Shown: positions 12,501-59,079, numbered from the stretch's first letter. The stretch: DNA of 64,000 bases from an uncultured Planctomycetia bacterium (GCA_964634945.1 CAZWMG010000002.1:102661-166660), one strand, 5' to 3'. The notes: a model not told the origin generated them from the sequence alone. Made by a program: numbers and translations.

Positions 12501-15500
12501 AATAGCTAAGCGCACAGGTTCTCTAACAGCATTTAAGGAATTACTCGCAAATCTCCACTCAGGGATAATATTAAGAGCTATAGAGGAATCTTTCTCTCAG
12601 GGGCAAAGTTTAGATGAAAAACTAGAGGAGATAAGAAGGCTTATAAATAGCAGGCTGAGACAGCAAGAGCTTGTTGAAGAGATGCGGGATATTATAATAA
12701 GCGAAGAAAATGATAATAATAAGAAAAGAACGGAATATGAAAGAGAAGTTAGTAAATATCAGGCAGCGCTTTTAAGGCTAAAAGAGTCTATTGCGGGCTC
12801 ATCCGATAAACTAAATACTTTTCTTGAAACCATTGGGGCTGATAATTTAATACCTCAAGAACCAGATAAGCGCGCGGCATTACTGGAGGTTATAAATCAA
12901 CGTCTTATAAATGAACTGGCAAAATTCCAGACAGAACAACAGCGCTCAAGAAAACAGCTCGACCGCCTAGCGCATGATGCGCAGCAAGGAGTTGCCGGTG
13001 CATTTACACAATTCGATGCTGTTATCGCAAAGTCTACACAGGTAGCGCGTGATTTTAGTTCTAGGATTAACAGCAAGGACGGAATAAAAACATTTTTAAG
13101 CGTTATTCTTGCAGGGCAGGCAAAAGGTAAGGTTTCTGAGGCTAAGAAGCGTAAAGGCTTAACAATGCCCACAAAAGCATTGCCTGTTCTGGCTTCCATT
13201 CTGGCTGTATTAACAGGGCTTGTCTCGGTTTTATATAGCGTTGGAAGCATCAATACATTATTGTTGCCTTCTATTTTGGGGCTCTCTACTGTATTCCCAT
13301 TACTCTTTCCAATTATGGGCATAATCGCGGCGATGTTTTTGATCGTTAATATATACGTTCAACAAGGCTATGGCAAGAAGATAGGGGTTCTAGTCAAAGA
13401 ATCAGCCAAAGACTTTTTCAAGATTACAACAGGCACAAAGAGCATTGATACAGGTAGCCAGCTTGCTGACGCAAAGGCTTTCTGGGCCTCATTTGGAAAA
13501 TTTGCAGGTACAACATTATTGTTTCTGTTAGCAACCCCTGGACTTTGGTCAGGCGCCGGTATGTTAATAGCAGCGATTATAAACCCAGGTATAGTTATAT
13601 TTGGCTTACCTGTTATACCTTTAGCTTTTATAGTACTATGTTTTTCATTATTAGCAAACCTGACATTCCACCGTGTATTTAACAGCCAACTTGAGCGACA
13701 AAGGCATATAACACCTACCAGATTTCAAGCAGGCCTTAACGCCTTTGTGAGGGCTATTGCATTAGGCATAGGTATTTCATTTGCAATTCAAGTTGGCACA
13801 GGTGCTGTTTTGCTTACGCTTTTACCGATAACCGCTATTGTAATAACAGCCATAGTTTCATCTTTGGCTACAAAAAAACAAACAGGACGGTACTATAAAG
13901 AAAAGCTACCGGAATATATAGGTTGGGTTACAGGAGTTATCGGAATAGGGGTTGTGCTTTTACTTGCTAGCTGGATAGGTGCCGCTGCTGTAGCGGGAGT
14001 TGCAATGCCCGCATTACAGGTCGCATTGGCAGTTGTAGGTTTAGGGACAATATCTCTACAGTCTCTCAGTGCGGGCAAGGCCGCTAGTATCGCTGTTGGC
14101 AAAGTTAGTGATTCCTGGAAAAAGAAACAGGTATGGATAACGAGTTTTATCCAGAACCTCCTGCCCAATAACAGAACCATAATAATGTATTCTATGATGA
14201 TAGTAGCAATCCCTCTATTAGTAGGCGGCGCTGTTAATACGATTTTGGTTGTATTGGCAAGCGGAATAGCTATTTGGCTACTTAATAAATTTAATGTTTC
14301 AATAGGAAAGCGGTTAGGTCCTAAGTGGTCAAAGAGATTAGGTGGCGTATTTGGGCAAGCGATGATGTATTCAGCCGCGACAACACCGATTGTGCAATTT
14401 ACACAAATGGCTAATCAAATGGATGAAAGACAATACCGGCAAACACATATTACGCGGGTATCCGAAGCGATAAAACAAGGCCAAAAGAATTTTCAAGACA
14501 CGCTTGGAGAAATAGAAAATTATAGTCCCGATCAGCTCAAAGGGCTAAAGAACCTTACGAAGAATATAGAGGGGTTTGTAGATGGAATAATTACAGGTAA
14601 ACCTGCTCCAACAGCTGTACCTGATTTAACAAAGGAAAAAAAAGAGAAAAGAGAAAAGGTAGAGACAGCTGAAGTAGGAGAATCAAAAGAGGCACAGCCC
14701 CGCGCACCTGCATTTACTCAAACCCCACAAGTAAGAGAAGAAGCAGAAGCTGTAGCCAAAGCAGAAGAGGAAGCCAAAGCAGTAGCAGTGAAGAAAGCTA
14801 AGCTTCATGTCCACACAGTTAAAAAAGGTGACAGCTTATGGAGATTATCAATAAGGTATGCTAAAGGAGAGAGCAAGCTTTATCAATTGAGGTTATTCGC
14901 AGAGATTCTTAAAGTTAATAAGCAGTTTACTGATCCTCGCATTATACATCCCGGAGACAAAGTAACTATTCCGGTGTTAAGAGCTACAAAAATTGTACAA
15001 AAAACAAAACCACAGGTTTATGTAGTTAAAAAAGGTGACAGCTTATGGAGATTATCAATAAGGTATGCTAAAGGAGAGAGCAAGCTTTATCAATTGAGGT
15101 TATTCGCAGAGATTCTTAAAGTTAATAAGCAGTTTACTGATCCTCGCATTATACATCCCGGAGACAAAGTAACTATTCCGGTATTAACAGGTACAGTAGT
15201 TTTAGTTCCACCCCCACCGCAAGAAAAGGTAAAGGTAGAGTTAAAGGAGAAGGCAGTGGTTGCGGTACCTCTGCAGGATAAGAAAGAAGAGCAACCGGTA
15301 AAAGAAAGAGTGCAAGATACAAGCGTACAAGTTAAGGGTGATAAGGCCGCAGTTGCGGTGTTACCACAGAAACATAAAGAGATTAAGCCAAAAGTAGCTC
15401 AGCCCATAGCTAAAAAGAAGGATACTGCAGCGAAAGCAGCTGTTGGCAAGATTAGTGTTGCGCCTATAGTAGCAAAACCTATTTTACAAGAAACTGTAGA

Positions 15501-18500
15501 GAGGCCAAAGGCTGCAGAGCCTACAATATCCGCACCAGAATCTTTGCCTGTCAGACTCACAGCAGATAAGAGATTATTGCCCCCTGCTGAACCTTTGTTT
15601 CAATTAGCTATTCAAGAAAACTTTAAGCCTAATCCCAAAGATGGAACATTGAGTATCCCCGAAGGATTGTCAAATACGATTCCTGCTAAATATCTTGCTG
15701 ATATGATAGGCGCGCACTATTTCGAAATTCCCCCTAATGTTCAGGGATGGAAATATTTTGATACAGTTATAGAAAACGTTAATAAGCGGTATCCTAATTC
15801 TGTAAAGATAGAGACTCATCTTAATACACGTGATTACATAGGCTTGTTTTATGGCAAAAGAGTAAAGATTGTAAAGGGAGAAGAAACTGTAGAAGTCATT
15901 CAACCTGTGTTGCTGGATATTAAAGATGGTGAAGTCGATGTTACGCCATGGAAAGTGGGAGATGAAGTATCAAGGATTTTAGAGCATAAAGATACAGCTT
16001 TATTGGAGTTCGGTTTAGCTAAAAGATTTGGTGAACTTAGCGCGTTAGAATTTAAAGAGCGCTTGAAGAAGGCAGATGTACTAATAGATTATTATGTCAA
16101 TAATGTCCTAAAAACCAAAGGGGAAGTTGCTAAGGTTGTATTCCCGGGACATGGTGGAGAAAATTATGCAACGTCATATTTTGGCCAAAAAGTTGGCGAT
16201 ATCTTAACAGAAGGCCAGCCTGTAATAATGTCAGCACAGCTAGTACAGCAAGCATCTCAAATACAACAAGCACGCGTTGCTGGACAAGAGAAGAAAAAAG
16301 TTGAGGCAAGTATCCCTAAGAAGTTGCCTGATATTGTTATAGCAAAAAAAGCATCAAAAGCCCCGCCTGCGAAAGAAGCCTTCTTGCAAGAGACGAAGCC
16401 CGAACTTGTAGAGACAGAGGCGATCCCCGAAGCAGTAAGCCGACAGGATTTCGCAAGGCAATTAGAAGCATTAGAAGCTCTTATTGCGGCTAAAGAGGCA
16501 TTAACCCGGGCAGAGAGCAATATAGCAAGCATTCAGCTCAAAAGAGACGATCTGGCAAAGAGTTCATTAGGATTAACGCCTAGCATAGGTTTCTATTCCA
16601 ACAGAGTAAATGAAGTGCAAGGCAGCATAGAAGAGTTGGATTTAAAACTTGCTGCAGATAAGGCAGGAGAAGAACAAGGTAAGCTTACGGTTCAGCGTAG
16701 TGCATTATCAAGGCTTGTTGTAACATTAAGAAACACCTTATTAGCAGGTGAGGTCAGGGCAGGAGACATAAAGGAAGAAGCCGGCAAATTAACGATGAGA
16801 ATAGCGCAGGCCAAATCAGCGGTAGGAGAGAAAAGGGCATATGTGCAATCCGTTCTTGCTCAGGCAGAAGATGCTGGATTAAAAATAAGCGCATCGGATA
16901 GTACTGAAAATTTAAGATCCAGGTTAGACTCATTGAAAGAGCAGGTCCCATTTTCCGCCCTGTTAGTTAGGAAGATTCTTGAATGGATTAGTGGTATTCG
17001 CGAGTGGATAATACAGATATTGATAGAATTTAATATCATAGAAGGCCAAAAAATCTATGGACAGAAAATTCTGCGGAAGAAATCTCCTCCTGCATTCTTT
17101 TCGCCGGTGAGAAAAGCCGCGCAAAAGAGTTTAACAGAGGTTCCCATGCTGCCTCAGATCGGAGATAAGAGGCAGATAATAGACTATGATAATATGACGC
17201 GTGAGCTGGCGTCTATTATATTGCAAAAGGAGGAGAGCCTGCAGGGACGAGGACTTATTACCCAGGTTTACTTGAAGAAAATAATAGAAGATTTTGCCGG
17301 AAAGAGGTCTTTATCAGAAAAAGAAGAGGCCAGGCTCGCGGAGAAGACATTAAGCTATCTTTCAGATGTTTTAAATATAAGAATATTAGACTTAAAAACA
17401 AGAGCTCTTGAAGAGACAAATCCTGACACAGCATTAGCACTGCTTAATGGGCCGCTACAATCTACGAAGAGGCAGCTGCAGATAGTAAGAAATACTATGC
17501 GTGAATATAAGGGGCAAGTTATTAGGTCTGAAAACCGCTCTTATGTTTCAAAGGGTATCGAAGATGCGTTAATGGCAGCTGAAAAGAGATTAAATGGGAT
17601 ACTTAAGAAAGATATAACACTGGGACAATCACAGCAATTAGCTGTTTTAAGCCGTGTATTGAAGGGGGCTAAAGAGGACAAGACGCCTATTACATTAGGT
17701 TACCTGAAGTCGAAGGTGGATGAGGTATTAAAGAGTAAAGAGGTAAAAGATGAGAAGGCCTTGTTGATATCTGTATTAGCAGATGTTAAAGGCATGCCTT
17801 CTCTTGCTGAACTTGAGATGATATATGAGCTTCTTGCCATGATCAATAAAGAGAGGGCAGAAGAGCTCTTGCTTGAGCAGGCTATAGATAAGAGAGCTAT
17901 TGAGGTCATATTTAAGGAAGAGACATTCGGACTTTATAATAAGCCTGGAAGCGTTTTTGAGAGCATTTATAAAATGGCACAGGCCTATACAGAAAGCCTG
18001 CAAGAACTTTATATACCAAGGCCGGAAAGAACTGTGAATTTAAAAGCGGCAATGGATAGACTCAATAAAACAAAAGAAGCGCTTGAATTGGCCTTAAATG
18101 GCAATAGCTGGGGTATGCTTCTTGATGCGCGCTTTTATATGGATATGGATTACCAGAGCGACCTGCTTGCCTCAGGAGAGACAGCAGGCGAATATGGGAA
18201 TGTCTTTGGCGTAAATACAGGACTGCTTATAAAGTTTTCAATAGAATCGAAGAGAATAGCTCCGAAACTGGTAGTAGACTATTTGAATGCATTGAATAAC
18301 ATGAAAGCGATAGAGCAGGTATCCAGGTTTGAGGAGATGGCGCCTTCTCTTTATATTAAGGCAATCGCGGATAGTATACAGTCAAGAGCCAAGGCTACAA
18401 GCGTGGAATTATCTGCGTTAAAAGGCACAGGTTCTACGGCACTCAATAAGCTTTTTAAATTAAAGGAAAGCGCACTGAATGCTAAAGCGCAGGGACTCGA

Positions 18501-21500
18501 GGCGCTAAGGGCATCTGATTACGAAAAACTCAATATAGATGAATTATTTAAAATAGGCTCACCAGAGATCTTGTACGAATTCTTATCTGGTGAATTGATA
18601 AGTGCAGCAAAGACGCAGGAAGACGGTGGCTTGTGGACAGCCGGCGCAAGCAAGCCGGAGAAGAGGTTTTTAGAAGGAGCATGGTTTGCCCTGAATCTTG
18701 GTGTTGTGGATATTGCGAAAACTGACGCGGAAATAGACTGGCTCGCTTTTATAAGAACATCCATTCCTATATATGATAGTTCTGAGGAACATTATTTGAA
18801 TCTTAAAGATAATGAGAGAAAGAGGCTTGTTGAGACGGTTAATATGGACATAGCCAAACTTCAGAATTACCTCTCCTTAATTGAGAATAATATAAATTTA
18901 TATGAGAAAGAATTTAATAGAGCTAACAGCAGACTAATTCCGGATGGCGTAGATAAGACGCTGCAATCACTTACTTATCTCAATGAAATGCCTGTTGCCA
19001 TGGCAAGGACCCGCGAGTTGTGGGCAGGTTATAAATATAACGGCAAAGAGTACCAGGGCCTTTTGAAGGCATTAGCCCAAAAAGCCATATTATCGTCAAG
19101 AATAGAAGAATTGAAGAAAACAAGAACCAGGATAGACAGCTTGTATAAAGATCCCACCAAAGAAGATAAGCAGTACGCGGAGGATAAGAAAGATGAGTTT
19201 GGAGATAAAATAGAAGAGCTGGATTCCAGGATTGAAAAAGCTGCAAACATTACTCAATTAAATAGCATAGCAGAGGCTGTTAGGGCACTGCCTAGTCAGT
19301 ACAGAGCATACTTTTATGATGATTTAAATTCCGTTGATGAGCATATTAGCAAATTGCTGGATGCTGTTCAAGGCAGAGCCATATTTCTTGTTGAGAATGA
19401 TATGCCTATAGCGGTTACATTACGCGCCGATGGGAGTAAGTTTTTTAAACTTATGCGTTACAGTGCCATGTCGCCTAAAGAACAGGTTAAACTCTTTAAT
19501 ACCTGGAAAGAGGCCATCGATGAGAGATTGAAAAATATGGCATCACCAGGCAAGGAGAGCCTTAAAGAGTTCCGTGCGTGCCTTTATTCCGCATTACCAA
19601 TAGGAAGTATGCAGATATCATTCGTAGGTGAGTGCGATAGTATAGTAATCAGGGCCAAGTCCTCAAAGACACTTTCACAGCTTACAGATGTCGCCAAAGT
19701 GTTTAATAAGCTTAAGCAGGATATGCTTAAGGTGGTAAAGGGCCATAACACGCGCGAGATATTAGAGAAGATAGATGTTGTCTACCGCATTATACATGAG
19801 CGCGGCATAACTTTATTAAATAATAGGCCATTATCAGAGGATACCTACAAGACTCTGGATAGCTTATTTGCTATTCTGCCTGAGCAGATATTCTCTCCAA
19901 AACAGAGGGCCGAACTTTATGAGAGATGGGTACAGGCATTGGATAGCGCGTCCAGGCTTGCAAGAGAAGAAAGAGCCGCATCTTCTATTATATCAAATAT
20001 AGACGATATTAAAAAGAAGCTGAACCAGCGCCTGAACAAGGTCTTTATAGTTATTCTGAAACAGAAGAAGTTTAATGAAGATATAGCTAAGGACATAAGA
20101 AGCAGGCTCCAGTCAGCTGATACATTAAAGGGATTATCTGAGATATTAAATGAAATAAATAAAGCGGAATCAGAATATAAGCGCTATTTTGTACGCGACA
20201 TAATATATTTCTCAGGCGCTATAAAAGAGTTTCGCCAAAGAATAGAGGCGGCGGCATTAGAGATGACAGCGCGTATACCTTTGGCTGAAGATTCTGTTTC
20301 CGATATATCTACGATAATATCTGCCATGGGCTATGAGAAGATGCCGCGTGAATTGCAGAATGAATCGCTTATCAAATGGCATGAAGTGATACTTAAGGCA
20401 ATAGAGGGCCATGATAATTTAAAAGGAGTAAAGACTGATATTGAAGCGAAATTACCAACAGCAAGAAGTGCTGGTCATTGGTTAGGATTAGTACCAAAGA
20501 ACCAATACTCTGATTGGGAGCTCTTAGAACATATTAGGATATCCGCGAAAGATAAAGATTACACAGAAGAAGTTTTGCTAAGCGCGCTTCTTAATGAGTT
20601 AAACGCAAGATTCATGCTCATTGTCCCATCCGTAATAGCGCAGAATGACAGGCCAATAGACATGCAGCTGCAGATTGCGTTCGAAAGATTCTGTAATTCT
20701 ATCCCGTCAGATGAATTAAATCCCTACAAGGTAAGAGAACTCAGACAGGAGCTGTTTAGAGCTTTGCTCAAAATAGCTAAGCAGGACAGTTCAATAGAAG
20801 AGTTGGCAAGCAGCACTTTTGAGAGCATGTCTGCGCTGGCTTCAAAAAAAGATAATAAGTATGTTTCATCAGAAGATGTTATATTGCGCGTTGCAAGAAA
20901 AGCGCCTCAAGATTCAAAGAGCACAACGCATTTAAAGAGTATGATCAGCAGCATAAACAAGAATCTCGCACTGACAGAGATTCAAGCTTCGCGGGCAGAT
21001 GCCTTAAAAGGCTTAGAAGGCAGTATTGCGGATATTGAGAAGAGATCAAAGAGGCTTGCAGAGTCAATTAATAAAGCCATTGTAGGCACACAAGACAAAA
21101 TAGGGGTTATTACTACGGATTCTGACATAGAAACATTGGTCAAAGGAGAATATGTAAATAGTATATTAAGAGAGATAATAGTTATTAATAAGAATATAAG
21201 AGCGCTCTCTATCGTAAGCGTAAAAGCTGATTCAGATTATTCTTCGTATGTAACAGGCCTTTCAGGAAGGGCCGCACATTTAAAATGGCTCTTAAAGCAG
21301 AATTTAAAGGTAGCAGTAGTAAATAATAAGAATGCCTCAGCGCAGGATAAGATAAGGGGCCTCTCATTCCTTACAAACAATTTATATAACACCAGCCTGG
21401 CTTATAACTCTTCTGATATAAAAAGCATGTATGATAGCCTATCCAAAGCTGGTAAAGAACAGGCGTATCTAAGGCAGGTTTATAATACAGCTATAGACAA

Positions 21501-24500
21501 GAGGGGAAGGTATGTGCGCTCCCTTATAGGCGGCGCAGGTTCCCCCACGGGCCTAATAGATTCATTAAAAAGAGGAGATTTCAGATACAATATAAAAGAA
21601 TCTGAAGATATACTTATAGCGCTCCTTAAAGAGGCTAGGGATAATAGTTACTATACTGCAGGCACTATCAATAATATAGGGCAACAGATAAATCAAGCGC
21701 TTACAATAGCTAAGGATGATACCAAAAAAGCGGTTGGTGATTTTAGCACTGTTTTAGAGAAGCATATATCAAACCAAGGTACACGTATCACCTCAGAACA
21801 TAGTGAGGCAAACATATTGGCAGCGTGGAACATTATAGAGTCCTATATGCTTAATGCGCTTAATATTCTTCCCCCGGGCGCTGAAAGGGATAATATCGTT
21901 AGTAGTACATGGAGCGCGCATGAATATTTAAAGGATACCCTAGAGAGCAGGAGAAGCCGGCAGAAGAGTTTTGATGCATCTTATTTTGAACTATCACGCA
22001 GGCTGGATTATATTGATATAAAAACAAACAGCACTGATGAGATATTTGGTATTATCGGTGAGTTGAAAACCCTTGATATTGAGTTTTCCCCTTATTTTAG
22101 AGGTGATGTAGATAAAGATAATGATTTTGAAGCTAAGGTAAGGCAGATTTATGGTACAGCCCATATGATGTCACTTGATATGATAGCATCAACTGCGAAA
22201 TTATCAGAAGACAGAGAGGATAATAAGAAACTAATAAATGATATAAATAGAGTTATAGGCCTAGTGGGTAACCTTAAAGATAGCAGAGAAAAGGCTATCG
22301 CCCTGGATAGGCGCAATAAGTTAAATCTTACGCTTATAAATATTATGCTAAATACTGGGGATGCGTTGAGTGATAAGGCTGAAGAGGTGATAGAGACTAA
22401 CAAAGGCCTTGATAGCGAGGCTCTTGTTATTAAGATAAAAGAGGCCCTAATCGCAGATAGCAGAAGTCAGGAGCTGCTCTGGCAGGAATGGATACATATT
22501 ATAAATTTACTAACAGATGCAATTGATAAGGGGTTCCCTCTCCCTCCCGCACAGGCACTTGCAGCAGATGCAACCAGACCTAAGGCTGAACGCTTCAAGG
22601 ACGCGTTAGGACTTACATCCAGCAATATATCTGTTTCAAGGAAGGAGATTGCAAGGCTTGGTGTAGAAGAGGCCAGGATACGCGAACGAATGCTTGAAAA
22701 TACCAGATGGCGCTTCAGTTTTGAAGGCAGTATAGGAACAGAACTTATAGACTTTTATCTTAAGACAACCATAAATATATCTACGGATGCGGATGAGAAA
22801 TACGCGGCACTTGCAACCAGGTTTAATGAATTGAAACATAAAATAGCTATAAGGCAATCGAATTATATGGGCGCAAGATTGATTATGGAGTATATATTAG
22901 CAAAACGTGATTTTGTAAACATCCAATCAACTATAGGCTTGTTAAGGGATGAGTTAAAGACAGCGCCGCAGCATAAGAGAGAATCTATAAGTGTTGAATT
23001 AAGAGGGCTGCAAAAAGCCTATAACCACGCGGAAGCGGTTTTATCAGACTTGACAAGGCCCGGTGCGATACCTGCCGAAGCGCTTGATTCCTTAGGTAGT
23101 ATGAATATCGATTATACGTCATTAGACGCGGATAAGCTTAGCAAGCTCAGCGGATTATTAGAGGAAGGCCTTAGCGCGGTTAATAAAGCCAGCGGAGTAA
23201 ATGATATCAGTACATACCAGATGGCATCATTAATAACAGAGCTGGCACAAGTAGGCATAGAGAAGGTAGAGGAACATAAAGATGGTATAACCATATATTT
23301 GGGTAACAACATAATCGGTTCAGCTGCCAGAACGCTCTTTCCGATAATATTTGGAATGTTCAGCGGACCGGATAAGTCCATGCTTGCCGAGGCAAATGTG
23401 CAGTATATACAGAGCTTAAAAGAGATGTTCTCCTCGCAAGAAGAGAGAGCCAGCAGGCAGCAGAGGCTAAAGCAAGTATATGGCCGCAGTATACTCAACC
23501 GCGGAATAGCCCAAGCCCAATATGAATTAAGCCAGGCAAAGACGGTTGAAGAAAGATACATAAGAGAAAAAGCAGTAAACATGGCATTAAAAGAATATCT
23601 GCGCGTGCGTATAGATATGAGTATGATGGATATACAGCCGGATACCCCTGAAAAAGATGATGAAAAGATAGCTAATATAATAGCCTCGTTGAAGGAGAAT
23701 AAGGGTAAGAGGCAGGATATATATAATCAGGCTCGAACAGAAGGAAAGCCTGATAAGAATAAGCTTTTCTTAGCAGAAGAAGGATTTAAGAATGCGATAG
23801 CGCAGATATTGATTCCCGATAACTTACCTACTACAGGCCAATACTATGCTTACGCGGATTGGTTAAGAGGCGATGTTGCCCGCATGGTAAGCAGATTTTA
23901 TCGCTCAGGAGAGGTCCTTACTGTTATATATGACGGCGGCCTGTTTACTGACCAGCAGGTTATTACCACAATAATGGAGATGCGTAATTATAGCACAAGG
24001 TATTCTGTTACAAGCGGCGATAAGCTTGATCAGCATGGCCAGTTGGCACAAGGCCTGCGCAGATTTGATATTACAGATAAGGTTTCATTAGAATATAATA
24101 TACAGCTTGCACTGGCGACATCGAGTTGGGGCACGAGTGTAGATAGTGACTCACTTCGTACAGAGATGGGGATAAATCTTCTGGTTGAAAGAGAGGGTTA
24201 CACATTGACTCTTCCTGTAGACTTGTCTATTGATGAAGATGGCAGGGCAGTCTATACGCTTGGAGCCGGTGTAAGGACAGACGGCGGCTTTGAGGCTATG
24301 GCAGGGATAATAATGGATTCTGATGACAAGATGAGATGGTGGGCAAACCTGAGCAAGATGTATGACAAGGTTATGATAGCCTTTACGTATACAGATTCTA
24401 GGCTGAATATGCGTACATACTATAGCCCTGTTTCATATCTTACAATAAGCCCTGAGATAGGCCATGATTTCGATACAGGAGAGACTTCCGCAAGGATGGG

Positions 24501-27500
24501 GTTTGGTGTGAATTATGAGGGCATGATAAGCTGTACTGTTGAGCCGGTGTATAGCAAAGACAGTGGCACAGCGGTTCCTGTAACAGTATCCGGCCGCACT
24601 GATTTTGGCACAACAGCACAGGCGACATATAGTGATGGCGGGGTCTTTACTATTAACCAGATTTTATCTAACGGTTTTGAGGTAGGCACAGGTTATGAAC
24701 ATGTAGACGGCTCAAAAGGTATTTCCAGAACATTTGCAAGCTGGACACCTGCTTCGCCTATGCCGGGCCTTGGTGTTGCGCCGAGCGTTGAGGTCTTTGC
24801 AGAACCGGGTGATTCCTATACCTATGGAGCGGGTTTAAATGCGGTTATGCCGGGAGGAAGTTCAGGAGAGCTATATGTTGCAAAAGAGCAGGAAGGCGTA
24901 TCCGCGAGATTACGCCTTGAGTGGGACATATTAGATTTGGGAGGATTTCTATCTCAAGGGCAGCAAAGACAAGCAATTAATTTTTCACCATTTTCTGATG
25001 CTACTTTTATAAACCCTAAAACCATAGCAGTGCCTGAAAATAACATAACTTCTAGCGCTTTCGCAATAGATCTTACTTATACGCAGAACCTTACAGCGAA
25101 TATAAAAGCAAGGTGGGAGAAGGAACAGGCACGCGATAAGCTTTTCTGGGAGGATAAAGGAGTAGGCGCAGAGTGGCTTAAGGAATTAGACAGTTTAAAC
25201 AGCCTGCTTGAAGAATACCGCCTTCTTACTGAGAAGATGCAGGCCGCAAGGAAAGAAGGCGCCGCTGCCAGGGCAAAATGGTCAGCCTTAGCAAAGCAGA
25301 CAGAACGCAGTATTGTGCTCTTACAAGAGATAAATGAAAAATTGGATAAGCTCCATGTTATATTCGCGGAAAAAGCTAAGATAGAGGATAAGATAAAGAA
25401 GTATGCTGAGGAATACGCTAAAGATATCGATGCCATCACAGCTCTACGTAAAGATATTGAGATGATGATTACGCAACAGGAGAAAGAGCTTGCTGAATAT
25501 AATGCCGTAGAGAGTGAAGCAGGTACTGTTATCCTATTATTTAATAATCAGGTTAATGATATAGCATCTTCCTGGATATCGGCTGAGGATGCCTCTATTT
25601 CAGGATGGAAAGCCCTTTATGGCAGCATTGAGTCAGATGTCAATACTTATCAGTCAGAGATATCCCGCGCAAGAAGGTTATGGGATAATCTAAGTGAGGG
25701 TGAGAAGAAAGATTTAAAAGAGGTGGTTAATGAGGAGAAGAGCCTTTTAATGGGCAGAGACTATTTTGGCTATACAACAAAACCGGATAATGAGGCAGAG
25801 TACTGGGCACAGATTATTGTGGCAGCTAGAGAGAATAATGAGGATCTCTCTTCATGGGTCAAGAAGAGGTTAGAGGCGTATGATTCCTTATCGAAAAAGA
25901 CCCAGCTTGCAACATATCTTCAGGAGAGCAATATAAAGGGTGGTTATTGGGAAAATAATAACAGCATTATGATATTCTGGGCAGAACTCTGGCTAAATAA
26001 CAGCTATGGCGAAAAATGGGTTACGCAGGAACTTGCTGACAGGATATCCTTTAAGACAATGTTCGAGAATTTCTATGAGGTGAAGTTTGATTCGTATAAT
26101 CCACAGCATGAAGAGGCCCTTATGCTCTTTACGGGAATGGCAAGGTTTGGCAACAAGGAACTTAAGGTGATACAGGAATTAGCCAATCTTGCGGCTGAGA
26201 ATAGAGAGTTTATAGAGGCTGTATGCGGCAAAAAAGATCCTCTAAATTATCCCCAGGATTTACAAGCTCTTCTTGAATGGGGCGCTTATATAAAAGTTGC
26301 TATGGATAATGGTTATGATCCCGCGGCATTTCTACAGCTTATTACATTTCTTAAGCCATATTACGCGGATATGCTGATAGCAAAAGGTATTATCAAAGCG
26401 CGCGATGAAATAGACGCCTTACTAAAGAGTCCTGCTAATGAGCACAGCCTGAAACTTCAAAAGTATTTAGCTCAGATAATGGATTCCGGTATCGTATCTG
26501 GCTCAACCTATACCAAAGAATTTATGCAGGAGTACCTAAATTCTCAGGTTGAACATGACGCTAAGATAAAGAGTCTTATAGGAGATGATATACTTGAAAA
26601 CTCAGAGAGCGTTGGCAAATATTTCGGAGTACTCTCTGCTGTACAGGATAACTGGGTGCAGGCAGGAAAGCCCAATATAAAGGGAAGAATAGGTATCGCG
26701 CTCGATTCGATGATAAAGTTAGCAGGTATTGCCAGGGCAGATACTACAATAAATGACAGGCTATTTGACGGTAAATTAGATATCAGTAACTCGAAACATC
26801 TTAGTAAGTTATTGTATTTTGCTCTTTATGATATAGGTGTAATGACTCATGAGATAACTGTTAGCGGTGAAGAGCTTATGCGTAACACAGCACATCTTTC
26901 AGATCCTGTAAGAAAGTTTCTCGGGCTTGATAAATTGTCAGAGGCGGATGCTGATACATTATTCTATTGGGCGTACGCGGCTATTAAACTCAAATCACAA
27001 GGCAGGGAGAACACTCTGGAACTGGTAAAGACAGCCTTAGATACTATGCACGATGCAAAGGAGCTGGTTGAGAAACTCGCGCCAAGTCAGGGTATATTAA
27101 CAATACAGCAGCTTCGAAATGTTAAGATAAGCCCTGAAGATGGACTTGGATACCAGGCATCACGCATTATGTATGAGGAGGCTGCATCGAAAGAGTCTGT
27201 TATTAAGGAGCTTGAGACAGATGTTAAGATGCATGAATCTCTAACAGAAGTCTTTGATGACGCTGATATTACTAATCCTCAATATCGTATATATCTTACA
27301 GGTTTATCGAAAGCAGAATCAGAAGCAAAATCCAAAGGTAAAATATTCGACGCAGCAGTATTTGCTAAAAAGATGCAATCTATTGCCGGTATGGACGCGT
27401 TTCAGAGCCTGATAGGCAATAGGAAAATAGGCATTGGTGATATTGTTGACGGGGTACCGAGCGCTCAGCTTAGGATTTTGGAGAAAATTACCGAAGTCTC

Positions 27501-30500
27501 GCTCATGTCTCAGGACGAGATAAAAGAGTTATTGGGCGCGGATGCTAAGGATATAGATATTGAGCAGCTTATCAAGGATATGGCAAACCTTAGGAGCGCT
27601 GACTGGAACTGGGTCGGAATCGAGGCCTTCGATATTGATAAACATGGTGATATGCTGTTTGTATTTGCGCTTATGGCTCAGCAACAAATAGATATAGATG
27701 GGGCCCTTATTCCTATAGGAACAACAGGCGTGGAAGAGTTATTTGCCTTTATGGGTAACAAAAAGGCAAAAGACGCTATATCTAATCTTACAAACAACGC
27801 GATAGATTTTAGTGCCCCACAGGATATTTACAGTGATAATTTTAAGGCACTTATTACTAATTCCCAGTCATTATATAAAATATATACAATAGAACAATTA
27901 GAACTCGCGACACAGATAAAGCCTTTATCAGAGAGCCTGTTTAATCTGGAGGAAGGCACATTAAGCATAACAAGCCCAGAACACAGAAGGGTCATATTCG
28001 AGAGGGTAGACGATGCTACGGTAGAAGGCTCTGATGTTATAAGCCATCTTAATTCTGTATTAGAGCTTAAGGAAGACTTTGAGAAGAGCTGGGGAGCTTT
28101 AAGTTTTGAAGAAGATAAAGGAACTTCCGGATCAAGGGGGACGCCTAAGCTGAAGTTTCTTGAAGAGATGGCATATATATATGATAAAGCCAAGAAAGAT
28201 AAAGAGGAAGGGCTTTCAAATTCAAGGTTCGCGGATGAAAAGTTTGTAAAGGCTGTAATAGAGTATTCCGGTCAGCTTGATGACGCAGATTTCTCCTGGT
28301 GCAAATCGGGTAATGAGGCCACAGCCCCTGAAGTTTTAAAAGACTGGAAACGCTATTTCGGCACCCTGGCAGTGATATTGGCTTATGAAGGAGAGGTTTT
28401 TAAGTCCTATCCTGAATACGGAGGCGCTTCAAAAGCAGTAGATAATGTCAAAGAACTGCTGTCACATATGTCAAAATTACACGAAAGTATCACAAAGAAT
28501 AAAGATTATAAAAAAGCCCTTCCTGATGATGCTAATTTTGCTGAATTGAATAATGTAGCATGGAAGTTTCTTATATCCGAGGCAGTGTATGAACTTAACT
28601 GGCTGCCTGACGGAGCTGTTATGGGTATAGAGAACAGGGCGAAAGCGCTTAGTGACTCACTTTCAATATTTGATTATGTAGAGAAGATGTATAAAACATT
28701 ACGAGAAGAGGCCCCAAAGATAACTACTCTTGAAGGCAAAGGTATATTAGATCAATTGATTTCAGGTATTGAGCTTACAGATACTACTATGACAGCTGAA
28801 AAGCTGGAGGCGATGAGAGATGTTATAGCATATTACGTAAGCAAGAGGCCTGAATTAGGCGTAGAGGGCGTATTGAACATTACCCAGACTCCTCTTAGTG
28901 TTGATAGCGTTATATTAAACCTAATTGCGGATACCAAGACGCAAGTAAAATCTGTTAATACGACGACTCTGATAGATTCTATGATATATACAAATATTCA
29001 TTTACGTGATGAGATAAAGGCTGATCTAGGGGAAGAGTCTGAGAATGTTGTGGCATACTGGACAGAGGTAGTCAATCGATCATTAAACAATGCAGCGCGT
29101 TCGGAATCTCTCCGGGAGATCGTAGATAAGCTGAAGAAAGATAGTAACTTTTATTATGTATTTAATCAGCCTGCTTATGTAAAACATCCTACAGGTACTC
29201 CTGTATGGGATATGACCGATGGAGCAGCATGGGATTTTCTTTATGGTACAGCTACAAATTACATAGGCCCTGACAAGCCATGGCAGACATCAGAAGAATA
29301 CCTAGCCTCTGTAAAGGATGTAAGAGATATGCTTGATACATATAAGCCTGAGATCGAGAGCTATCTTTCTGATTCTAAGCTTTGGGGCCTTTCAATACCA
29401 AAGAACCTATTGTATTATAAATGGAATGATTCCTCAGCCGAGGGAGCTAATCAGAAGAAGGTAGCGGATATACTTTGGGGCCTTGCTTTATTAATTAATA
29501 GATATTCCATACCGCATACAAACATTGATACCGGAAGCACAGGTACATTGACTATAAAGGACTTGATTAAATTATCGCCTGATCTTCTTGATAACTTAAG
29601 CAACCAAAAAGGTATAGCCAATACTCAGATATTATCTCTTATCCGTGACCTTCATCCAAGAGTTAATGCGAACGATGTATACAGGACAAATGGGAGAAGC
29701 GGCGCTATAATACGCCAGTTATACGCTGATTTTGCTGAGATGATTCGCACTGGTTACTATTATGTGTATACATATGCACAGGATTCATCAGGCAAGGTCA
29801 AACAGGAGCTTGTGCGTGTTAAGTCTGATGAGCCTATTACAAAAGAGCTTATCGAAAGGAACCTGCGAAGGACTAAAGAATTAATAGACGCTGGAGCGCT
29901 CAATTATATTTATACCATGTCACCTGAAACAAATGGCATAAAATATTATGGTAATTCCGAATACAGCCCTATAATAAGGAATTATTTCAATTACATAGTA
30001 ACGCAAGACAATTATAATCAGCAAGAGTTACTGAAGATGCTCCATGCCAAGAGCATGTATCATCAGTCTATAGTAAAGCAGTCCAGCCAATGGAAGGCAA
30101 AGTTCCATGATTTTTATAATATACCCGCTGGAAGCGAGCTTGACCCATTAACGAATAAGGCATATGACGACGCGTTAAGCATCCTTGCGTCAACACTTGT
30201 TATAGGTAGTGTTAAGTATAATCCCGCAACAGGTACATTTGAGCCTACAGGAGCTGTACCTGAATCAGAATGGAATGAGAAGATAAATGACTTTATAGAA
30301 TTACTTCCTATCATGGATGATATCTACGCTAATAATAAGGCTGCTCTAGATAGTATAGCAGCTGCTTATGGCATAACAGAAGAGAGTGATCCGCAGGCAT
30401 ATTATACAATAGCTGCTGATATAGCATACAATTTTAAGACAGGCTACTTACAGTATGACGCAAAGACAGCCACATTCAAAAGAGCATGGCCCGAAGGAAC

Positions 30501-33500
30501 CAAAGGCAACCTTTCTGCTTTTGTGAACAATGTCTTAAATACTGTCAATAAAGAGTATGTAACCAATCTTCAAACGCTTTTTAATAACCCAAGGGTTATA
30601 AGCCTGGCTAAGAATATTTATGGCGCAGATACAGAAGAAGAGGTATCTGCTGTTATTACAACGATACTCAATGATTTTACAGAAGGCTACTTACAGTATA
30701 ACCCGAAGACAGGCCAATTTGATAAATATATATGGCCTGAAGGAACCAAAGGCAACCTTTCTGCTTTTGTGAACAATGTCTTAGGTACTGTCAATAAGGA
30801 GTACTTAAATAATCTGGGCAGTCTGCTTAATAATCAAAGCGTTATAAATTTAGCGAAGAATGTCTATGGAGCAAGCGCAGAGCAGGAGGTATCCGCAGTT
30901 GCTGCCCAGATACTCAATGATCTTGATAAGGGGTATTTGCAGTACAACCCCGCATCAGGAAGATTCGATAAGAGGATATGGCCTGAAGGAACCAAAGGCA
31001 ACCTTTCTGCTTTTGTGAACAATGTCTTAAATACTGTCAATAAAGAGTATGTAACCAATCTTCAAACGCTTTTTAATAACCCAAGGGTTATAAGCCTGGC
31101 TAAGAATATTTATGGCGCAGATACAGAAGAAGAGGTATCTGCTGTTATTACAACGATACTCAATGATTTTACAGAAGGCTACTTACAGTATAACCCGAAG
31201 ACAGGCCAATTTGATAAATATATATGGCCTGAAGGAACCAAAGGCAACCTTTCTGCTTTTGTGAACAATGTCTTAGGTACTGTAACAACAGGGTATCTGC
31301 GCGATCTGAGGACTATCCTTACTCATTCAAGGTTTAATGCTATAGCTAATGCTTACAAAACAAAGACTGATGAGCAGAAATCCGCGGTTGCTACCCAGAT
31401 ACTGAATGATTATAAGAAAGGTTATTTGGAATATAATATTCAACAGAGAAGATTTATATGGAAAAAGTATGATTTTTCTATAACCTTGTTAAATATAATC
31501 AATGAAAGTGCTGATCTGTTAAGCCGGGGCCTGTTGGACAATATGCGCGAATTATATACAACATATTCAGGAAGCGTAGACAGGATAGCGCAGTCTCAGG
31601 GAGTAGTTGACCGTAATTCAACAGAATACAGCTCAATAGTAGCAGACTTAGCTCGCCGGATGATTCTGGAGAAGATTGATCCAGTAGATTTATGGGACAT
31701 GCCCCGTAACATCGAGGACGCGAAATCCTTAAGAGACGCTTTGGCTGCCGACCCTAATCTACTTAGATTTATAACAGGAAAAAATAATATAAATACTCCT
31801 GAAGTTGAGGCCTGGGTTGTCGCGCAGGCAGCCAAGATAGGCCAGGGCATAGACAAGGGTTTTCCTGATTATAACTCGTATCTCATGGTTATGAAGGCAT
31901 GGATGCATATATGGAATGATGTCTGTGAGCAGATTGGACGCAGGCCTAACATAGATTTAACTTCAGGCTTTGGCTATGAGTTAAGAAACGGCCAACTCTA
32001 TTTAAAATATTATAGCGGGGATTATTCCGGTATAAAGATAGGTGTTGATAATCAGGATCTGGCTGATATTACTGTGACATTGGTAAAGGGCAATGAGGCA
32101 TCTGCTGATGAATACGCTACATGGCAGGTAATGCAGCAGGTAATAAACAAGGAAAGAAGGATTTATAAGATAGCTGATGCCGGGCCCGGTTACGAGAATG
32201 TGCAAAGCGCGTATCGCGGCGATATTAAGGTAATAGAAAAAATCTATGCTTATAAGGAGCAGATACCGGGATACCTCTCTAAGGAGCCGCTTTGGACTGA
32301 AACAAATACCTATGATGTCCGCACAGGAGCTCCAATCAGAGTAGAGGCTCACCACTCTATAATAGAATATTCACGTGAGTATCATGATTGGTATGAAGTA
32401 CCGCGCGATGAACGCAATCCAAGTTTTGGTTTTATAAGATCAACCATGCCTATAGGTGGAGTTATCAGAAGCGCAGACGGGAGTTTAAAAGAGAAGTTTA
32501 CAATAAGCGACATAGATAAAGAGAGAGGCACCTTTGTCCTGCAGGTAGATGTGTATGCGCAGCAAGATGGCAAGGATATTGTTATAGCCACAAGAAGTGA
32601 GATATGTGATATCGGCACAGGTGGTGTTTTGGATCAGAAGAATAGCGATGGAACGTATATCAGTTATACCTATAGAGACATACTTTTAAGGATAGCCTCA
32701 AAAGTAGAAGAGTTTGCTGGAACTGATGAGGCCCCGGTATCTGTGCATGAGCTTTATGATTTAGAGGGCCTGCCTGGCGAAGGTATTGCTGCAACAGATA
32801 TAGACCAATGGAGCAATACAAAGACGCATGATCCGCACGGGGCGCTTGTGGCTCAGACGGATATAACTGTTGCCGGCAATACGACTACCTCTGTATATCG
32901 CAATAAAGATACACAGAAAGAGATAGTAAGAGTTGAGCGGGATGAGCAAGGCCATATAATAAAGATAGGCATGTTTAAGGGGCATGTCCGTGATGAGGAA
33001 ACAGGCGACTACTTGGCAAGAGTTGAGACAGTAGATCCTGTTAGGGCAGGATGGGCCAAGTCAGGCCTTGATATGGAGGCTTTTGTAAGGGATATGGCCG
33101 CCTCTAATTCAGGTAAAGAGTTTATAGATCTTGATCCTAAACTTGATAAGTCGTTGATTGAGACAAGGTTATATAATGGCCCTAAATTAGTTGAACTGAT
33201 ATCAGAATCACAGGCAGGTAAGACCATAACCAAGGTCTATTATGATAAAAGAACAGGTAATGAGGCATTTAGAGTAACAAGAAATGCTAATGGCGAGATA
33301 ATAGATATAGGTATTTATAGAGGCTATCAATATGAGGATAAGATAAGCGGCGCAATATTGACATTGGAAGAGGCAAAACAGATTTATGGCAAAGATTATA
33401 TAAAAGAGACTTATAGGCTAGCGAAGGTTGACAGGCTCGATGTGCAAAAAGCCGGGTGGGATGAGATTATGGATACTACTTTCGGCCGCATGCCCGCTTC

Positions 33501-36500
33501 CGAGGTTTTCTTAGGTCAACTTAAAGAGACATCCGATCCGATAGGCGCGGAATTCAGGATAAATGATAACAAAGGAATGGCTATAAAAGATATTGCAAAA
33601 CAGACCGAACCTTTTGTTATTGAAACAAGATGGTATAGCAATGAAAAGTTGAGAAAGCAGATTGCCACTAATGAAGCAGGAACAGCGGCTACTACTATCT
33701 ATTATAACCAGCAGACAAACCAGGAAATAGGCAGAATAGTAACCAATGAAGACGGGACATTGATAGTAGATATAGGCGTATTTGAGGGATATGATGAAGA
33801 TCATAACGCTATTGTACAGATGATAGATCCTGTAAGAGCCAGCATGAAGGTACATGAAATAGAGGAACTTGCCACAGAGTTAAGGCAGGGTAATAACTTA
33901 ATTATCAAAAGAGACAATGGCAAGATAAAAATAGGCACGTTTGCCTTTGATCCAAAGGTTATTATGGAACGCAGATACAGCGGACAGTATCTTGTTTCGC
34001 AGGAGACAGAATCAGTTGCCGGAAAATCGTGTATACAGGTATACTATGATAAGAACAGAGTGCGTGAATCGGGCAGGGTAGAAAGAAATGTAATGGGCGA
34101 TCTGGTGGGTATAGGCAGATTTATAGGGTATAACGAAAGAGGAGATGCCTATGTAGTAATGCTTGATCTTAGAAAATTGACATCGTTATCAGGATTAGGC
34201 AGAAATTTAGTTCACATGCTTGAGGAGGGCAAAGAGCTTCCGAATAACTTTGGTATACCTGAGGATGCTATGTTTTTGAAAAATTTAATTGAAACCAGGG
34301 TATATAGCGGTGAAAGATTGATGCACTCTACAATATCAGGAATTACAACATCTGTATTTTACAATAAGGATACAGTTCAGGAGATAGCAAGAATTGAAAG
34401 AACACGCGTGCCTGTATACAAGATAAGTGATAAAGGTAAGGTGACAGGAAGTGAGGCCCTTACTCTAACAGAAGAGGGGGATGTAGATTTTAAAGGCAGA
34501 ATAACCAGCATAGGTACGTTTAAGGGGTATGATAGAGAAGGAACAGGTATCTCTACTGTTGAGATGGTAGATACGCGAAGGGCTGGATTGAGCCATAGTA
34601 AAAAAGGACCAAATAGCAGCAAGCCTGTTGATAGTAGAATTCAAAATATAATGGCAAGATTTATCAAGGGAGAGCCTGTATTTTTGCAAGATGACGAATA
34701 TAAAATATTTCCAAGAGCTATAACAAAAAGGCAATATTCAGCAGAAGACCTTTATATCGAAACAGCTTTTTCAGAGGGTGGTTTGGTAGAAACAGAAGTA
34801 AAATATAAAGAAAACTATAAAGGTGAAAAACTCCTTTCAGAAGAAGGTAGGAAGGCATATGGCGTAGATGGTAGCGACGCTACACGAAAGCGCATGCTAA
34901 GACAGACAGGCCTGCTGTTAGGATATCAGGAAGAAACCGGATTTGCCAAAATAAGTATGAAAGATGAGATTACTGGCAGGGGATGGACAGAGATCCATAA
35001 TGTTGCAGGTATTGTAAAAGAGCATATAGAGGTTGACTCAGAAGGTATACTTGACCGTGCTGTTTATAATTACGATGAAGACTGGTTGGCTACTACAAGT
35101 GAAACAGAGGTTATTGATGGAGATGGAACAATAGCAGGTACATCGTATCGTGGGAAATTTAAAGGTTATATTAATGGTTACGCTTTAGTTGAGCTCCAAA
35201 ACGTGAAGAACGAAGATACGTGGCAGGAGCTTCTTAATCAGATAGGTGAATTAAAAGCAAAGGCACAAGGCATTGTAAAGAATGGTAATTTTATAGCGAC
35301 AACAACGGATGTCTTTGATTACGAAGGGCAATTAGGATTATTAGGCACAACCACAAGTATACATGGATATGAATATGACCCAGCTATATCTTTTATCAGA
35401 AACATGCTGCGTAAAGACACGCAAAACGCGGTTACGGAAAAATACGCTATTGATAGATACGGCATAAAAAGACCGGTAGCAGAGCTGACTAGAGCCGATT
35501 TGATAGATGGGAAACCTCTTATACTTTATCACAGCAGGTTAAATGATTATGCCTGCCAGAGCCTTGATAATAAAGAAGGCCAGGTAAGAGCAAAGATAGA
35601 AGGGCTTATTGTAGAAGGTAAATTTGTGCGCCTTTCTATAGAAGTCCCAAGATATATGGGCGTATTTAAACATTTTGGCCATATGTCAAAAAGCCGTGTA
35701 TATCGATACTTCCAGAAGCAAGATCTGGCAAATGACCTTAAGGTTCTAGAAGGCCTATGGGATTTGCACGCAGATGAGACGGATACAGATATTGCCAAAG
35801 CGCTGATGCAGGAAGGCCTATTAAAATATAAACGCATGTTAAGCAAAGATGGTGCAGCTATCCCCATTGAAGAGTTGACGTTGGATGACTTCATAAGTAT
35901 AAGTAATGATATGATAGATATTAAGAATGTTCCTTTATACCAGACCATTACGCCGCTTTTTCAGCATGCGGTTCAAGAGGCAGAGGATGGCAGAGGAAGG
36001 GTCGCGCTCAAATATACAATGGAAAGACAACAGGATGGTACATTCATAAGGAGAAAAGCGGTGTTTTTGAAGTATTATGATGACAGGAAAGACCCCCGTG
36101 TCCCTACTAGCAGCCCTAAATATGGACTAACTGTCATAGCGGATCACAGCAAGACGAATGCGGTTCATAATAACGGCAGCATAAACTATGGCAGGCCCGT
36201 GGATGAGTCTTTTTTTGAAGGCCTTTATAATAAAATGGTACGCATAAGACAGCATGGTTTTGAAAGTAAATTAACCTCGCTGGTAGACAGGAATGGCTGG
36301 GGCAGGGTTGCTGCTAAGCATGAAGGAGTTCTTGCAGAAGGCGAAGAATGGAACAGGTACGCTAAATTTATAGCTACAAGGCACATACTTAAGCATTATG
36401 ATGACTTCACTGAGAATGGCCTGGGCATACTGCGCGTAGCAGACATGGGCCAGACATATGTAATCACAAGCACGACCAAAGATGGCTCATACATATATGA

Positions 36501-54564: not shown

Positions 54565-55209
54565 ATGAGAAAGATGTTAGCACTTAGCGCGTTGGCACTG
54601 ATTGCCGTATCATTAGTGGCAACAGGATGCGCCAAACAGGAAGAGATCGTAATTGAGGAGTTTGAGTCCCAGAACGCGGCAACGGGAAAAGATTTTAAGG
54701 TATTCAATATATATACCGATAAGTCATCTCCGGGTAACCATTATATACCTTCAGGCTGGATGGGTGATTTTAGCGACATAAAGATAAACGACCGTTATAT
54801 GGAAGGTGCGCATAGCGGCACTACCTGTATACAGGTAGAGTATCTTCCTCGCCGTTCACAGGGGGCCGGTTGGATGGGAATATATTGGCAGAACCCAGCT
54901 AATAATTGGGGATCTAAAAAGTCAGGCTTTGATCTTACCGGAGCTAAGGAGCTTGTTTTTTGGGCTCGTGGAGCTAAAGGCGGAGAAATAATATCAGAGT
55001 TTAAGATGGGCGGCATTACAGGTGAATTTTCAGATTCTGATTCCGCTGGCATAGGCCCTGCTATGCTTACATCAGATTGGAAAGAGTATAGGATAAATTT
55101 GGAAGGTAAGGATCTATCCCATATAATAGGCGGTTTCTGCTTATCCGCTAACGCTGATGATAACCCTGATGGGTTTATTATCTATCTTGATGATTTAAAG
55201 TACGAATAA
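54565..55209 (+). CDS. Lipoprotein with a beta-sandwich carbohydrate-binding-module-like domain (paralog A of 62607..63209)
   Basis: Lipobox LVATGC. Shares with the 62607 protein the blocks Y.PSGWMGD.SDI, G..C.(Q/K)V.Y, G(A/R)(G/R)W.G.YWQNP.NNWG, DLTGAK.L.FWARG.KGGE.I, G.(K/L)..D..YI.GGF, (I/F)YIDD..YE. Confidence 0.7.
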   Translation: MRKMLALSALALIAVSLVATGCAKQEEIVIEEFESQNAATGKDFKVFNIYTDKSSPGNHYIPSGWMGDFSDIKINDRYMEGAHSGTTCIQVEYLPRRSQGAGWMGIYWQNPANNWGSKKSGFDLTGAKELVFWARGAKGGEIISEFKMGGITGEFSDSDSAGIGPAMLTSDWKEYRINLEGKDLSHIIGGFCLSANADDNPDGFIIYLDDLKYE

Positions 55210-58012: not shown

Positions 58013-58143
58013 AGGGGACGCCCCTGAGCATGGAAATAGATAAAATTTTGCAAAAATAATAAATTTGTGCAACATGCAATAATATATATATAGTTAAGCA
58101 AAATATAGTTATCAGAAAACTAAAAAAACGATAAAACTCAATC

Positions 58144-59078: not shown

Positions 59079-59079
59079 A

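Follow-up and report, generated by a model that had tools for sequence, protein, structure and literature searches.

A transmembrane-beta-barrel-like module near the middle of a 14,300-residue giant protein with relatives in Candidatus Omnitrophota

In this work we present the analysis of a beta-strand-rich segment encoded in a 64,000-nucleotide stretch of DNA from an uncultured Planctomycetia bacterium (GCA_964634945.1, CAZWMG010000002.1:102661-166660); this whole stretch is called the window, and all positions are counted from its first letter. The segment lies within an uninterrupted open reading frame (ORF) of 14,300 amino acids (aa) located at 3520..46422 on the plus strand, and according to the ORF listing positions 23920-25130, to which an earlier note on this DNA had drawn attention, correspond to aa 6801-7204. 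The best available description of the segment, which draws on a structural model of medium confidence, is that of a transmembrane-beta-barrel-like, lineage-specific module of probably 20-22 long antiparallel strands with very short turns; it is real, conserved and unannotated. We tentatively propose, giving the idea somewhat less than an even chance, that aa ~6813-7160 form an internal outer-membrane barrel whose two helical flanks would both lie in the periplasm, and which would pin down an inner-membrane-anchored, peptidoglycan-binding giant. Omnitrophota giants, the class that this protein fits, are among the largest proteins known and carry hardly any annotation.

Composition, conservation and predicted fold of the module

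The earlier note had described an abrupt change from Lys/Glu-rich helical to Gly/Ser/Thr/Tyr-rich sequence over about 400 residues, and composition windows confirm it as a real and very strong change. Among windows of 400 aa, the one that starts at aa 6770 has the highest G+S+T+Y of the whole protein (0.348 versus a mean of 0.227, SD 0.032), while its K+E content is among the lowest in the protein (0.072 versus a mean of 0.155). Windows of 30 aa place the edges of the switch at ~aa 6761 and ~aa 7190, with K+E returning to 0.3-0.4 directly downstream. The amphipathic beta-strand pattern, also claimed there, proved to be above chance: a detector of strict alternating amphipathic nonamers found 11 strands in aa 6801-7203, compared with 4.1±1.9 (maximum 11) in 1000 composition-preserving shuffles. 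It is the densest cluster of alternating strands in the protein, other windows reaching at most 7 and representing helical transmembrane (TM) clusters, and the period-2 hydrophobic moment is dominant, exceeding the helical moment in 63% of module windows versus 41-42% in the flanks. The region is free of DNA tandem repeats, neither strand has a substantial competing ORF, and comparison of the thirds of the module by hhalign gave no internal repeat.

An exhaustive phmmer search of 1.84 billion representative proteins returned five relatives only (E 2e-25 to 1e-4), all of them partial hypothetical proteins labelled Ca. (Candidatus) Omnitrophota or Omnitrophica, four originating from Ca. Omnitrophota metagenome-assembled genomes (MAGs) and one from a JGI metagenome. 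One relative (P0002) was found also in GTDB, on an Omnitrophota groundwater MAG contig, which was the sole result of the alignment-based genome-contig scan; metagenome-contig scans and an initial genome-contig scan yielded no relative, and a word-indexed protein search was empty for the module, for the six-sequence alignment and for a 2,000-aa piece around the module. The relatives are collinear with the window protein over aa 4650-8820 and carry the beta module in the same place, between the same conserved helical flanks, so that the module is a rare but conserved part of one giant-protein subfamily and not a local accident. Homologous giant genes are broken on two public contigs, of which L001 shows a reading-frame switch (open stretches of 2,729 aa and 1,932 aa) and L002 has five called genes split by scaffold gaps (runs of N) and reading-frame breaks. 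Public annotation therefore under-reports such proteins, which may explain the scarcity of relatives.

The module and its immediate flanks comprise the following parts:

23836..23898, plus strand: conserved amphipathic helix just before the beta module, aa 6773-6793, Y..W[LV]...V.RMV.R.Y (AlphaFold2 model residues 3-23; alignment)
23956..24927, plus strand: beta module, about 22 predicted antiparallel amphipathic strands, aa 6813-7136 (DSSP of the AlphaFold2 model, alternation in homologues, Foldseek)
24031..24513, plus strand: best-supported core, aa 6838-6998, pLDDT 60-82, 11 strands of 8-14 residues (AlphaFold2, alignment)
25006..25017, plus strand: conserved F-x-N-P, aa 7163-7166, behind the last strands of the model, where the beta module may end (alignment, anchored on NP)
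25072..25296, plus strand: conserved Lys/Glu-rich helical flank downstream, aa 7185-7259, W..EL..L..LL..W..L..KMQ..R.KG (AlphaFold2 helices, model residues 415-440 and 445-489; alignment)
25090..25116, plus strand: LTANIKARW, aa 7191-7199, predicted helical, not conserved (AlphaFold2, alignment)

AlphaFold2 run on the single sequence was uninformative (pLDDT 34), and the model discussed here was obtained from the six-sequence alignment, with the confident core at model residues 68-228. This core holds the motif Y.L.FPVD...G.G.R.-.G....AGV..D., and its strands are consecutive and antiparallel, with 2-5 residues in the turns between them except for one connection of 11 residues (connection lengths in the confident part are 2, 5, 4, 11, 2, 5, 3, 4, 2, 2, 2, 5 and 3 residues). 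In the full model the strands of the module are followed by two long helices. When the model was compared with the PDB by Foldseek, the top 35 places were all taken by transmembrane beta-barrels, with probabilities mostly of 0.9-1.0; among them are VDAC1 (E 8e-4), Tom40, BtuB, LptD, PfeA, Cir, a Rhodobacter porin and a designed 10-strand TM barrel. In a viral-protein library rich in tail fibres, spikes and lectin-like folds, OmpC porin came first (probability 0.99) and a second porin reached 0.96, a few unnamed phage proteins scored 0.8-0.9, and tail fibres and spikes stayed at or below 0.2. The earlier note had named a soluble beta-sandwich or beta-helix as the structure that would speak against a barrel; the top neighbours in both collections are TM barrels instead.

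Chemistry of the two strand faces was read from family columns, with strand limits taken from the medium-confidence model and mapped onto the family alignment. In every confident strand the hydrophobic fraction is 80-100% on one face, as opposed to 0-25% on the other. Inside the strands, the hydrophobic face carries L/V/A/I/F with 3% charged residues, and Tyr+Trp on this face amount to 20% at strand-terminal versus 7% at internal positions (Fisher p 0.002, indicative only, as the sequences are related). The opposite face is 31% charged, 13% Gly and 3% aromatic. Strands usually end in ...GY[DN], ...GWD or ...KYD, which looks like an aromatic girdle, and residues paired across three clear two-residue turns (121/124, 178/181, 188/191) share a face, so that in the model the hydrophobic face runs on from strand to strand. 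With the strand limits of the model, this face pattern and the girdle-like aromatics appear as hallmarks of lipid-embedded barrels: an aliphatic face, aromatics at the ends of strands and a polar opposite face, which together characterize outer-membrane beta-barrels, were all found, alternation as such being shared by TamB. Alternation, face chemistry, AlphaFold2 strands and Foldseek neighbours thus speak for the part of the earlier note that concerned an outer-membrane-barrel-like build, while closure of the sheet and its insertion into a membrane are what we infer.

The ends of the module differ from what had been assumed. The pattern was thought to finish in an aromatic strand, LTANIKARW; this stretch is a helix in the AlphaFold2 model (at low pLDDT), it is aligned to heptad-like helical sequence in homologues (YLEGLKENLARGERE, MYDDLEKKIDAIEKE and others), and its Trp is not conserved. 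F-x-N-P is common to all five full-length sequences, and the alternation preceding it is irregular. At the other end, the pre-module amphipathic helix is kept in 5/6 sequences, with pLDDT of 32-38. VDAC and Tom40, the top structural neighbours, likewise have an N-terminal helix, which sits inside the barrel, and this may serve as a low-confidence lead for aa 6773-6793. A conserved hydrophobic/Pro motif, G.N...S..RT.FP..F..FSGP.K., lies ~150 residues 5' of the module (window 23350-23400, plus strand, ~aa 6611-6627) and is present in all relatives covering the region, for instance as SAARTLFPIIFGMFSGPDK in the window and SSGIRTIFPLLFRFFSGPNK in L002 (3-992).

The host protein and its topology in the envelope

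The giant ORF qualifies as one of the Omnitrophota SecA-domain giant proteins by its length above 10,000 aa, a divergent SecA, many TM helices and homologues that are all from Omnitrophota. Little of it is recognised by Pfam, which gave a SecA-like module, LysM and sub-threshold matches only. The features of the protein outside the module are:

3520..3612, plus strand: N-terminal signal-peptide-like/anchor segment, aa 1-31, hydrophobic core 10-28, then IASA/TN (Kyte-Doolittle scan and sequence; the cleavage site is our own reading, made by eye)
11809..12456, plus strand: SecA-like P-loop ATPase module, aa 2764-2979 (Pfam PF21090, E 3.9e-7)
13177..14289, plus strand: helical TM cluster 1, aa 3220-3590, about 9-11 segments, the count being ambiguous (Kyte-Doolittle scan, sequence inspection)
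14812..14973, plus strand: LysM peptidoglycan-binding domain, aa 3765-3818, the best of two matched stretches (Pfam PF01476, E 3.9e-14)
40243..44628, plus strand: helical TM clusters 2-4, aa 12242-12390, 12645-12907 and 13397-13703 (Kyte-Doolittle scan)

A weak match to the SecA preprotein-binding (cross-linking) domain (aa 2566-2683, PF01043, E 0.0035) is below the cut-off, as is a HEAT match near the C-terminus. The divergent SecA-like region as a whole (window 11215-12456, plus strand, aa 2566-2979) stands directly 5' of the first helical TM cluster, and a SecA module before a TM cluster is the arrangement proposed to power self-export of giant proteins (10.1101/2023.11.21.568195). The hydropathy scan gave 37 hydrophobic peaks, some of them overlapping, which, besides the N-terminal segment and a marginal one standing alone, form four clusters. 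In aa 12242-13703, 3' of the beta module, there are more than 20 helical membrane segments, and no hydrophobic membrane helix was seen in aa 3586-12241. The C-terminal ~2,100 residues (aa 12201-14300, window 40120-46419, plus strand), which hold three of the helical TM clusters, matched nothing in Pfam, NCBIfam or PDB sequences.

As LysM is found just after TM cluster 1 and hydrophobic helices are missing from aa 3586-12241, a stretch of ~8,650 residues, with the module near its middle, is probably periplasmic. In our proposal, the loop between helical TM clusters 1 and 2 would be exported into the periplasm, where the module would insert into the outer membrane of the producing cell itself, its aliphatic face and its girdles of Tyr/Trp being turned towards lipid, and an even number of strands would keep both Lys/Glu-rich helical flanks periplasmic. 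Alpha-helices would hold the one chain in the inner membrane, LysM would bind it to peptidoglycan and the barrel would seat it in the outer membrane, making it a covalent envelope-spanning tether and possibly a pore. The full architecture, a 14,300-residue chain seated in both membranes of a diderm cell, with inner-membrane helix clusters on either side of an ~8,650-residue periplasmic loop and a central VDAC-like outer-membrane barrel of ~22 strands, is put forward with more reserve, at about one chance in three. A diderm envelope agrees with the AcrB-type pump encoded upstream (see below) and with the outer-membrane RcpA secretin homologues reported in Omnitrophota (PMC10066038).

Several topological consequences that the earlier note had drawn have to be given up. 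Everything C-terminal of the barrel was expected to be exposed on the surface, which cannot be reconciled with the helical membrane segments found downstream. The intimin/autotransporter topology was likewise rejected, as the module is internal (aa 6813-7136 of 14,300), has about 22 predicted strands and no family match, and is followed by helical TM clusters. Searches of aa 12001-14300 with Pfam, NCBIfam and PDB sequences gave no sign of the supposed downstream GT48 module, and with this module falls the topological conflict with a cytoplasmic GT48; an even strand number would anyway bring the chain back to the periplasm, so that there would be no conflict and no processing would be needed. 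YD-like modules were also expected downstream, and not a single Pfam family appeared at E<=0.1 in aa 8001-12500.

Weighing the barrel against other explanations

Controls for the strand pattern were E. coli proteins run through the same detector; the number of alternating strands per 100 aa in the best window was as follows:

Module and homologues: 2.1-3.9
Ushers FimD and ElfC: 3.0-3.3
OmpA: 2.1
OmpF, LptD and TamA: 0.9-1.5
Chaperone sandwiches FimC and ElfD: 0.4-0.9
GFP: 2.1; FimG: 3.0
TamB: 5.2

Since TamB stands above real barrels, this density was dropped as a barrel discriminator. Softer features, namely Y+W on the hydrophobic face, Gly on the polar face, aromatics at strand ends and the structural neighbours, lean towards a barrel.

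Several observations weigh against an outer-membrane barrel. The TamB value means that alternation cannot separate such a barrel from a lipid groove of TamB type. The module and its homologues have no significant match in Pfam, NCBIfam or PDB sequences, and no outer-membrane-protein (OMP) family is recognised by sequence, the best such match, seen in just one homologue, being PorP_SprF (E 0.05, 13.6 bits versus a cut-off of 22.3 bits); when the module profile was compared by hhalign with E. coli OmpA, OmpF, LptD, TamA, TamB, two ushers and soluble controls, every probability was below 1%, and no clear C-terminal beta-signal was seen. Long extracellular loops, expected of bacterial OMPs, are absent from the confident part, and the alternation of short and long turns is weak. 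Mean pLDDT of the model is only 46.7 and pTM 0.38, with the C-terminal half of the module (aa ~7000-7136) below 40, and the Foldseek alignments to the PDB have TM-scores of 0.2-0.48 and root-mean-square deviations (rmsd) of 7-21 A, so that the likeness is one of local sheet geometry and not of a superposable closed barrel. As to topology, the stretch immediately following the last helix of TM cluster 1 (LLNKFNVSIGKRLGPKWSKRLGG) is rich in Lys/Arg and, by the positive-inside rule, speaks for the opposite side; together with the ambiguous helix parity of that cluster, this leaves LysM as the sole basis for the periplasmic assignment. We know of no precedent for the assembly of a barrel that is ~3,200 aa away from the preceding inner-membrane anchor and ~5,000 aa from the following one. 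In a published survey that applied DeepTMHMM to Omnitrophota giants, no credible beta-barrel was reported, and two 'BETA' calls were treated as artefacts (10.64898/2026.06.07.730766).

The main competitor, which we regard as rather unlikely, is an open periplasmic sheet similar to TamB/AsmA/YhdP or LptA/C/D ('beta-taco' or beta-jellyroll), whose hydrophobic groove would carry lipid or other hydrophobic cargo between the membranes. It would account for the alternation, in which E. coli TamB is denser than the module (5.2 versus 2.1-3.9) with similar charge on the polar face, and for a host that is anchored in the inner membrane with a huge, probably periplasmic loop as TamB is, and closure of the modelled sheet is only presumed. 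However, AsmA, DUF490 and LptA-type families remained unmatched even at E<=10 and hhalign with TamB was empty, and there is no Lpt or TamB groove among the top 50 PDB neighbours, where all entries with probability >=0.7 are single-layer closed barrels. Tyr/Trp at strand ends, Y+W on the hydrophobic face (0.07-0.16 versus 0.08 in TamB) and Gly on the polar face (0.10-0.25 versus 0.11) lean slightly to an OMP, and a groove of ~330 aa alone would be too short to span the periplasm. An extracytoplasmic soluble beta-rich domain with no membrane role (a sandwich, a barrel with a hydrophobic core, or a carbohydrate-binding or structural module) seems improbable to us. The model is weak over half of the module, small soluble beta proteins do reach ~2-3 strands per 100 aa, as GFP and FimG show, and beta-barrel-like CBM35-type repeats have been predicted in Omnitrophota giants (West-Roberts et al., 10.1101/2023.11.21.568195). 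Yet a single hydrophobic face runs on over at least 11 consecutive strands and the module has no second layer that could bury it, the sandwich controls FimC and ElfD remain at 0.4-0.9, no soluble beta family was matched in Pfam or by PDB sequence, and in Foldseek lectin, tail-fibre and beta-helix targets have low probability, with no sandwich or carbohydrate-binding module among the top PDB neighbours.

Two further explanations appear to us still less probable. A membrane-inserting module aimed at a prey or host cell, a pore or anchor delivered in predation, is one to which we give little weight: the same amphipathic features would apply to it, and Omnitrophota giants have been proposed to act on target-cell surfaces and giant ORFs of other ultra-small symbionts to be pores (PMC10066038; 10.1101/2023.11.21.568195). 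The module, however, is tethered on both sides, with more than 20 helical membrane segments downstream. Moreover, each subunit of the known beta pore-formers supplies one or two hairpins and not a monomeric sheet of ~22 strands. The least credible option is a short piece of an Rhs/YD-like shell, or of the 'antiparallel beta-helix tubule' of Omnitrophota giants. Hollow tubules of this kind, ~1,500 aa long, have been described for both giant-protein subtypes (West-Roberts et al., 10.1101/2023.11.21.568195), and one Y-D-x-x-T-G motif is found inside the module. The module, only ~330 aa long, has no exterior helices at regular intervals as the tubule does, profile comparison shows no internal repeat, the top 50 PDB neighbours include no Rhs or Tc-toxin shell, and neither RHS_repeat nor other Pfam families are matched. 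Membership in the Rhs/YD-repeat shells was rejected on the missing RHS_repeat and the missing repeats at both protein and DNA level; autotransporter, intimin and AsmA/TamB families in Pfam gave no match for the module either.

If the outer-membrane barrel is true, it would be the first concrete outer-membrane anchor point for one subfamily of these giants and would settle how some 8,600 residues are placed in the envelope. Among outer-membrane barrels it would be the first that is internal and has inner-membrane anchors on both sides, extending the recently discovered Dma1 type of dual-membrane-spanning single polypeptide to a far more extreme architecture, and would call for an unknown route by which a mid-chain barrel is passed to the assembly machinery, perhaps in connection with the SecA-like module that the chain itself carries. 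Should the module turn out to be a lipid groove or a soluble domain instead, the result would be the modest annotation of a domain that is rare and lineage-specific. With its small size the module can be excised and expressed, which makes the barrel idea directly testable.

Gene neighbourhood and comparison with known systems

By Pfam, an AcrB-type RND pump is encoded upstream of the giant ORF and sugar-related genes downstream; an exact look-up of the window AcrB gave no match. Directly downstream of the giant gene (window 46584-52415, plus strand) there is a 1,943-aa fusion protein with a nucleoside-diphosphate kinase domain (aa 106-228), a weak UDP-glucose pyrophosphorylase-like domain (aa 492-707) and all four phosphoglucomutase/phosphomannomutase (PGM/PMM) domains (aa 951-1460). 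Domains of the PGM/PMM type are present inside some giant proteins (West-Roberts et al., 10.1101/2023.11.21.568195), whereas here they belong to a separate neighbouring gene. Two GH2-like TIM-barrel glycosidases (55286-56572 and 60676-62571, plus strand) flank an ABC sugar importer (56702-60053, plus strand) that consists of a solute-binding protein and two permeases. The glycosidases, the importer and the nucleotide-sugar fusion gene make up a carbohydrate-use neighbourhood of the giant gene. Three ORFs of 200-214 aa on the plus strand (54565-55209, 60050-60673 and 62607-63209) had no Pfam match.

The host protein resembles the SecA-domain giants of Omnitrophota in being mostly unannotated and in having an adjacent PGM/PMM sugar-metabolism gene. 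It differs from them in the putative outer-membrane-type barrel. In West-Roberts et al. 2023 and in the 2026 complete-genome survey, Omnitrophota giants are modelled as anchored in the inner membrane, with domains that are extracellular or periplasmic, and a barrel in the outer membrane is not reported (10.1101/2023.11.21.568195; 10.64898/2026.06.07.730766).

Among known barrels, VDAC and Tom40 are the best Foldseek neighbours and the nearest in shape, each a compact short-turn barrel (19 strands, ~280 aa) preceded by an N-terminal helix, and by the short turns of its confident part the module resembles VDAC or designed barrels rather than typical bacterial OMPs. VDAC and Tom40 are, however, eukaryotic and have an odd strand number, and identities of 6-10%, TM-scores of 0.37-0.42 and rmsd of 12-16 A indicate that the resemblance seen in the model is one of sheet geometry only, with no evidence of homology. 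The ushers FimD and PapC share with the proposed arrangement a large central barrel with periplasmic domains N- and C-terminal to it, as well as a strand density of 3.0-3.3 that falls within the 2.1-3.9 range of the module, but they are free outer-membrane proteins without inner-membrane helices, have 24 strands, a plug and longer loops, and show no sequence similarity to the module. In intimin/invasin and autotransporters a barrel is likewise part of the same chain as large non-barrel regions, and intimin also has a periplasmic LysM; these type V systems, in contrast, have terminal 12-stranded barrels exporting a passenger through or beside them, whereas the window module is internal, far larger, and its chain would run back to the inner membrane. 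TamB/AsmA proteins have in common with the giant an inner-membrane anchor and a long periplasmic region of alternating amphipathic strands, and differ in that the window module is only ~330 aa long, lacks a family match and has closed barrels, not grooves, as structural neighbours.

The nearest functional precedent is the Dma1 family of Bacteroides, whose single chain combines a helix in the inner membrane, at the N-terminus, with an 8-stranded barrel in the outer membrane, at the C-terminus, an arrangement that has biochemical support (PMC10927553). Dma1 is a protein of ~55 kDa with a single TM helix and a C-terminal barrel recognised by Pfam as OMP_b-brl_2, whereas the window module is internal, with about 22 predicted strands, matches no family and has, to either side, helical sequence of thousands of residues as well as TM clusters. 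What the two would share is an alpha-helical anchor in the inner membrane connected to a barrel in the outer membrane by a linker crossing the periplasm, an arrangement that is experimentally supported for Dma1 and proposed here for the giant protein.

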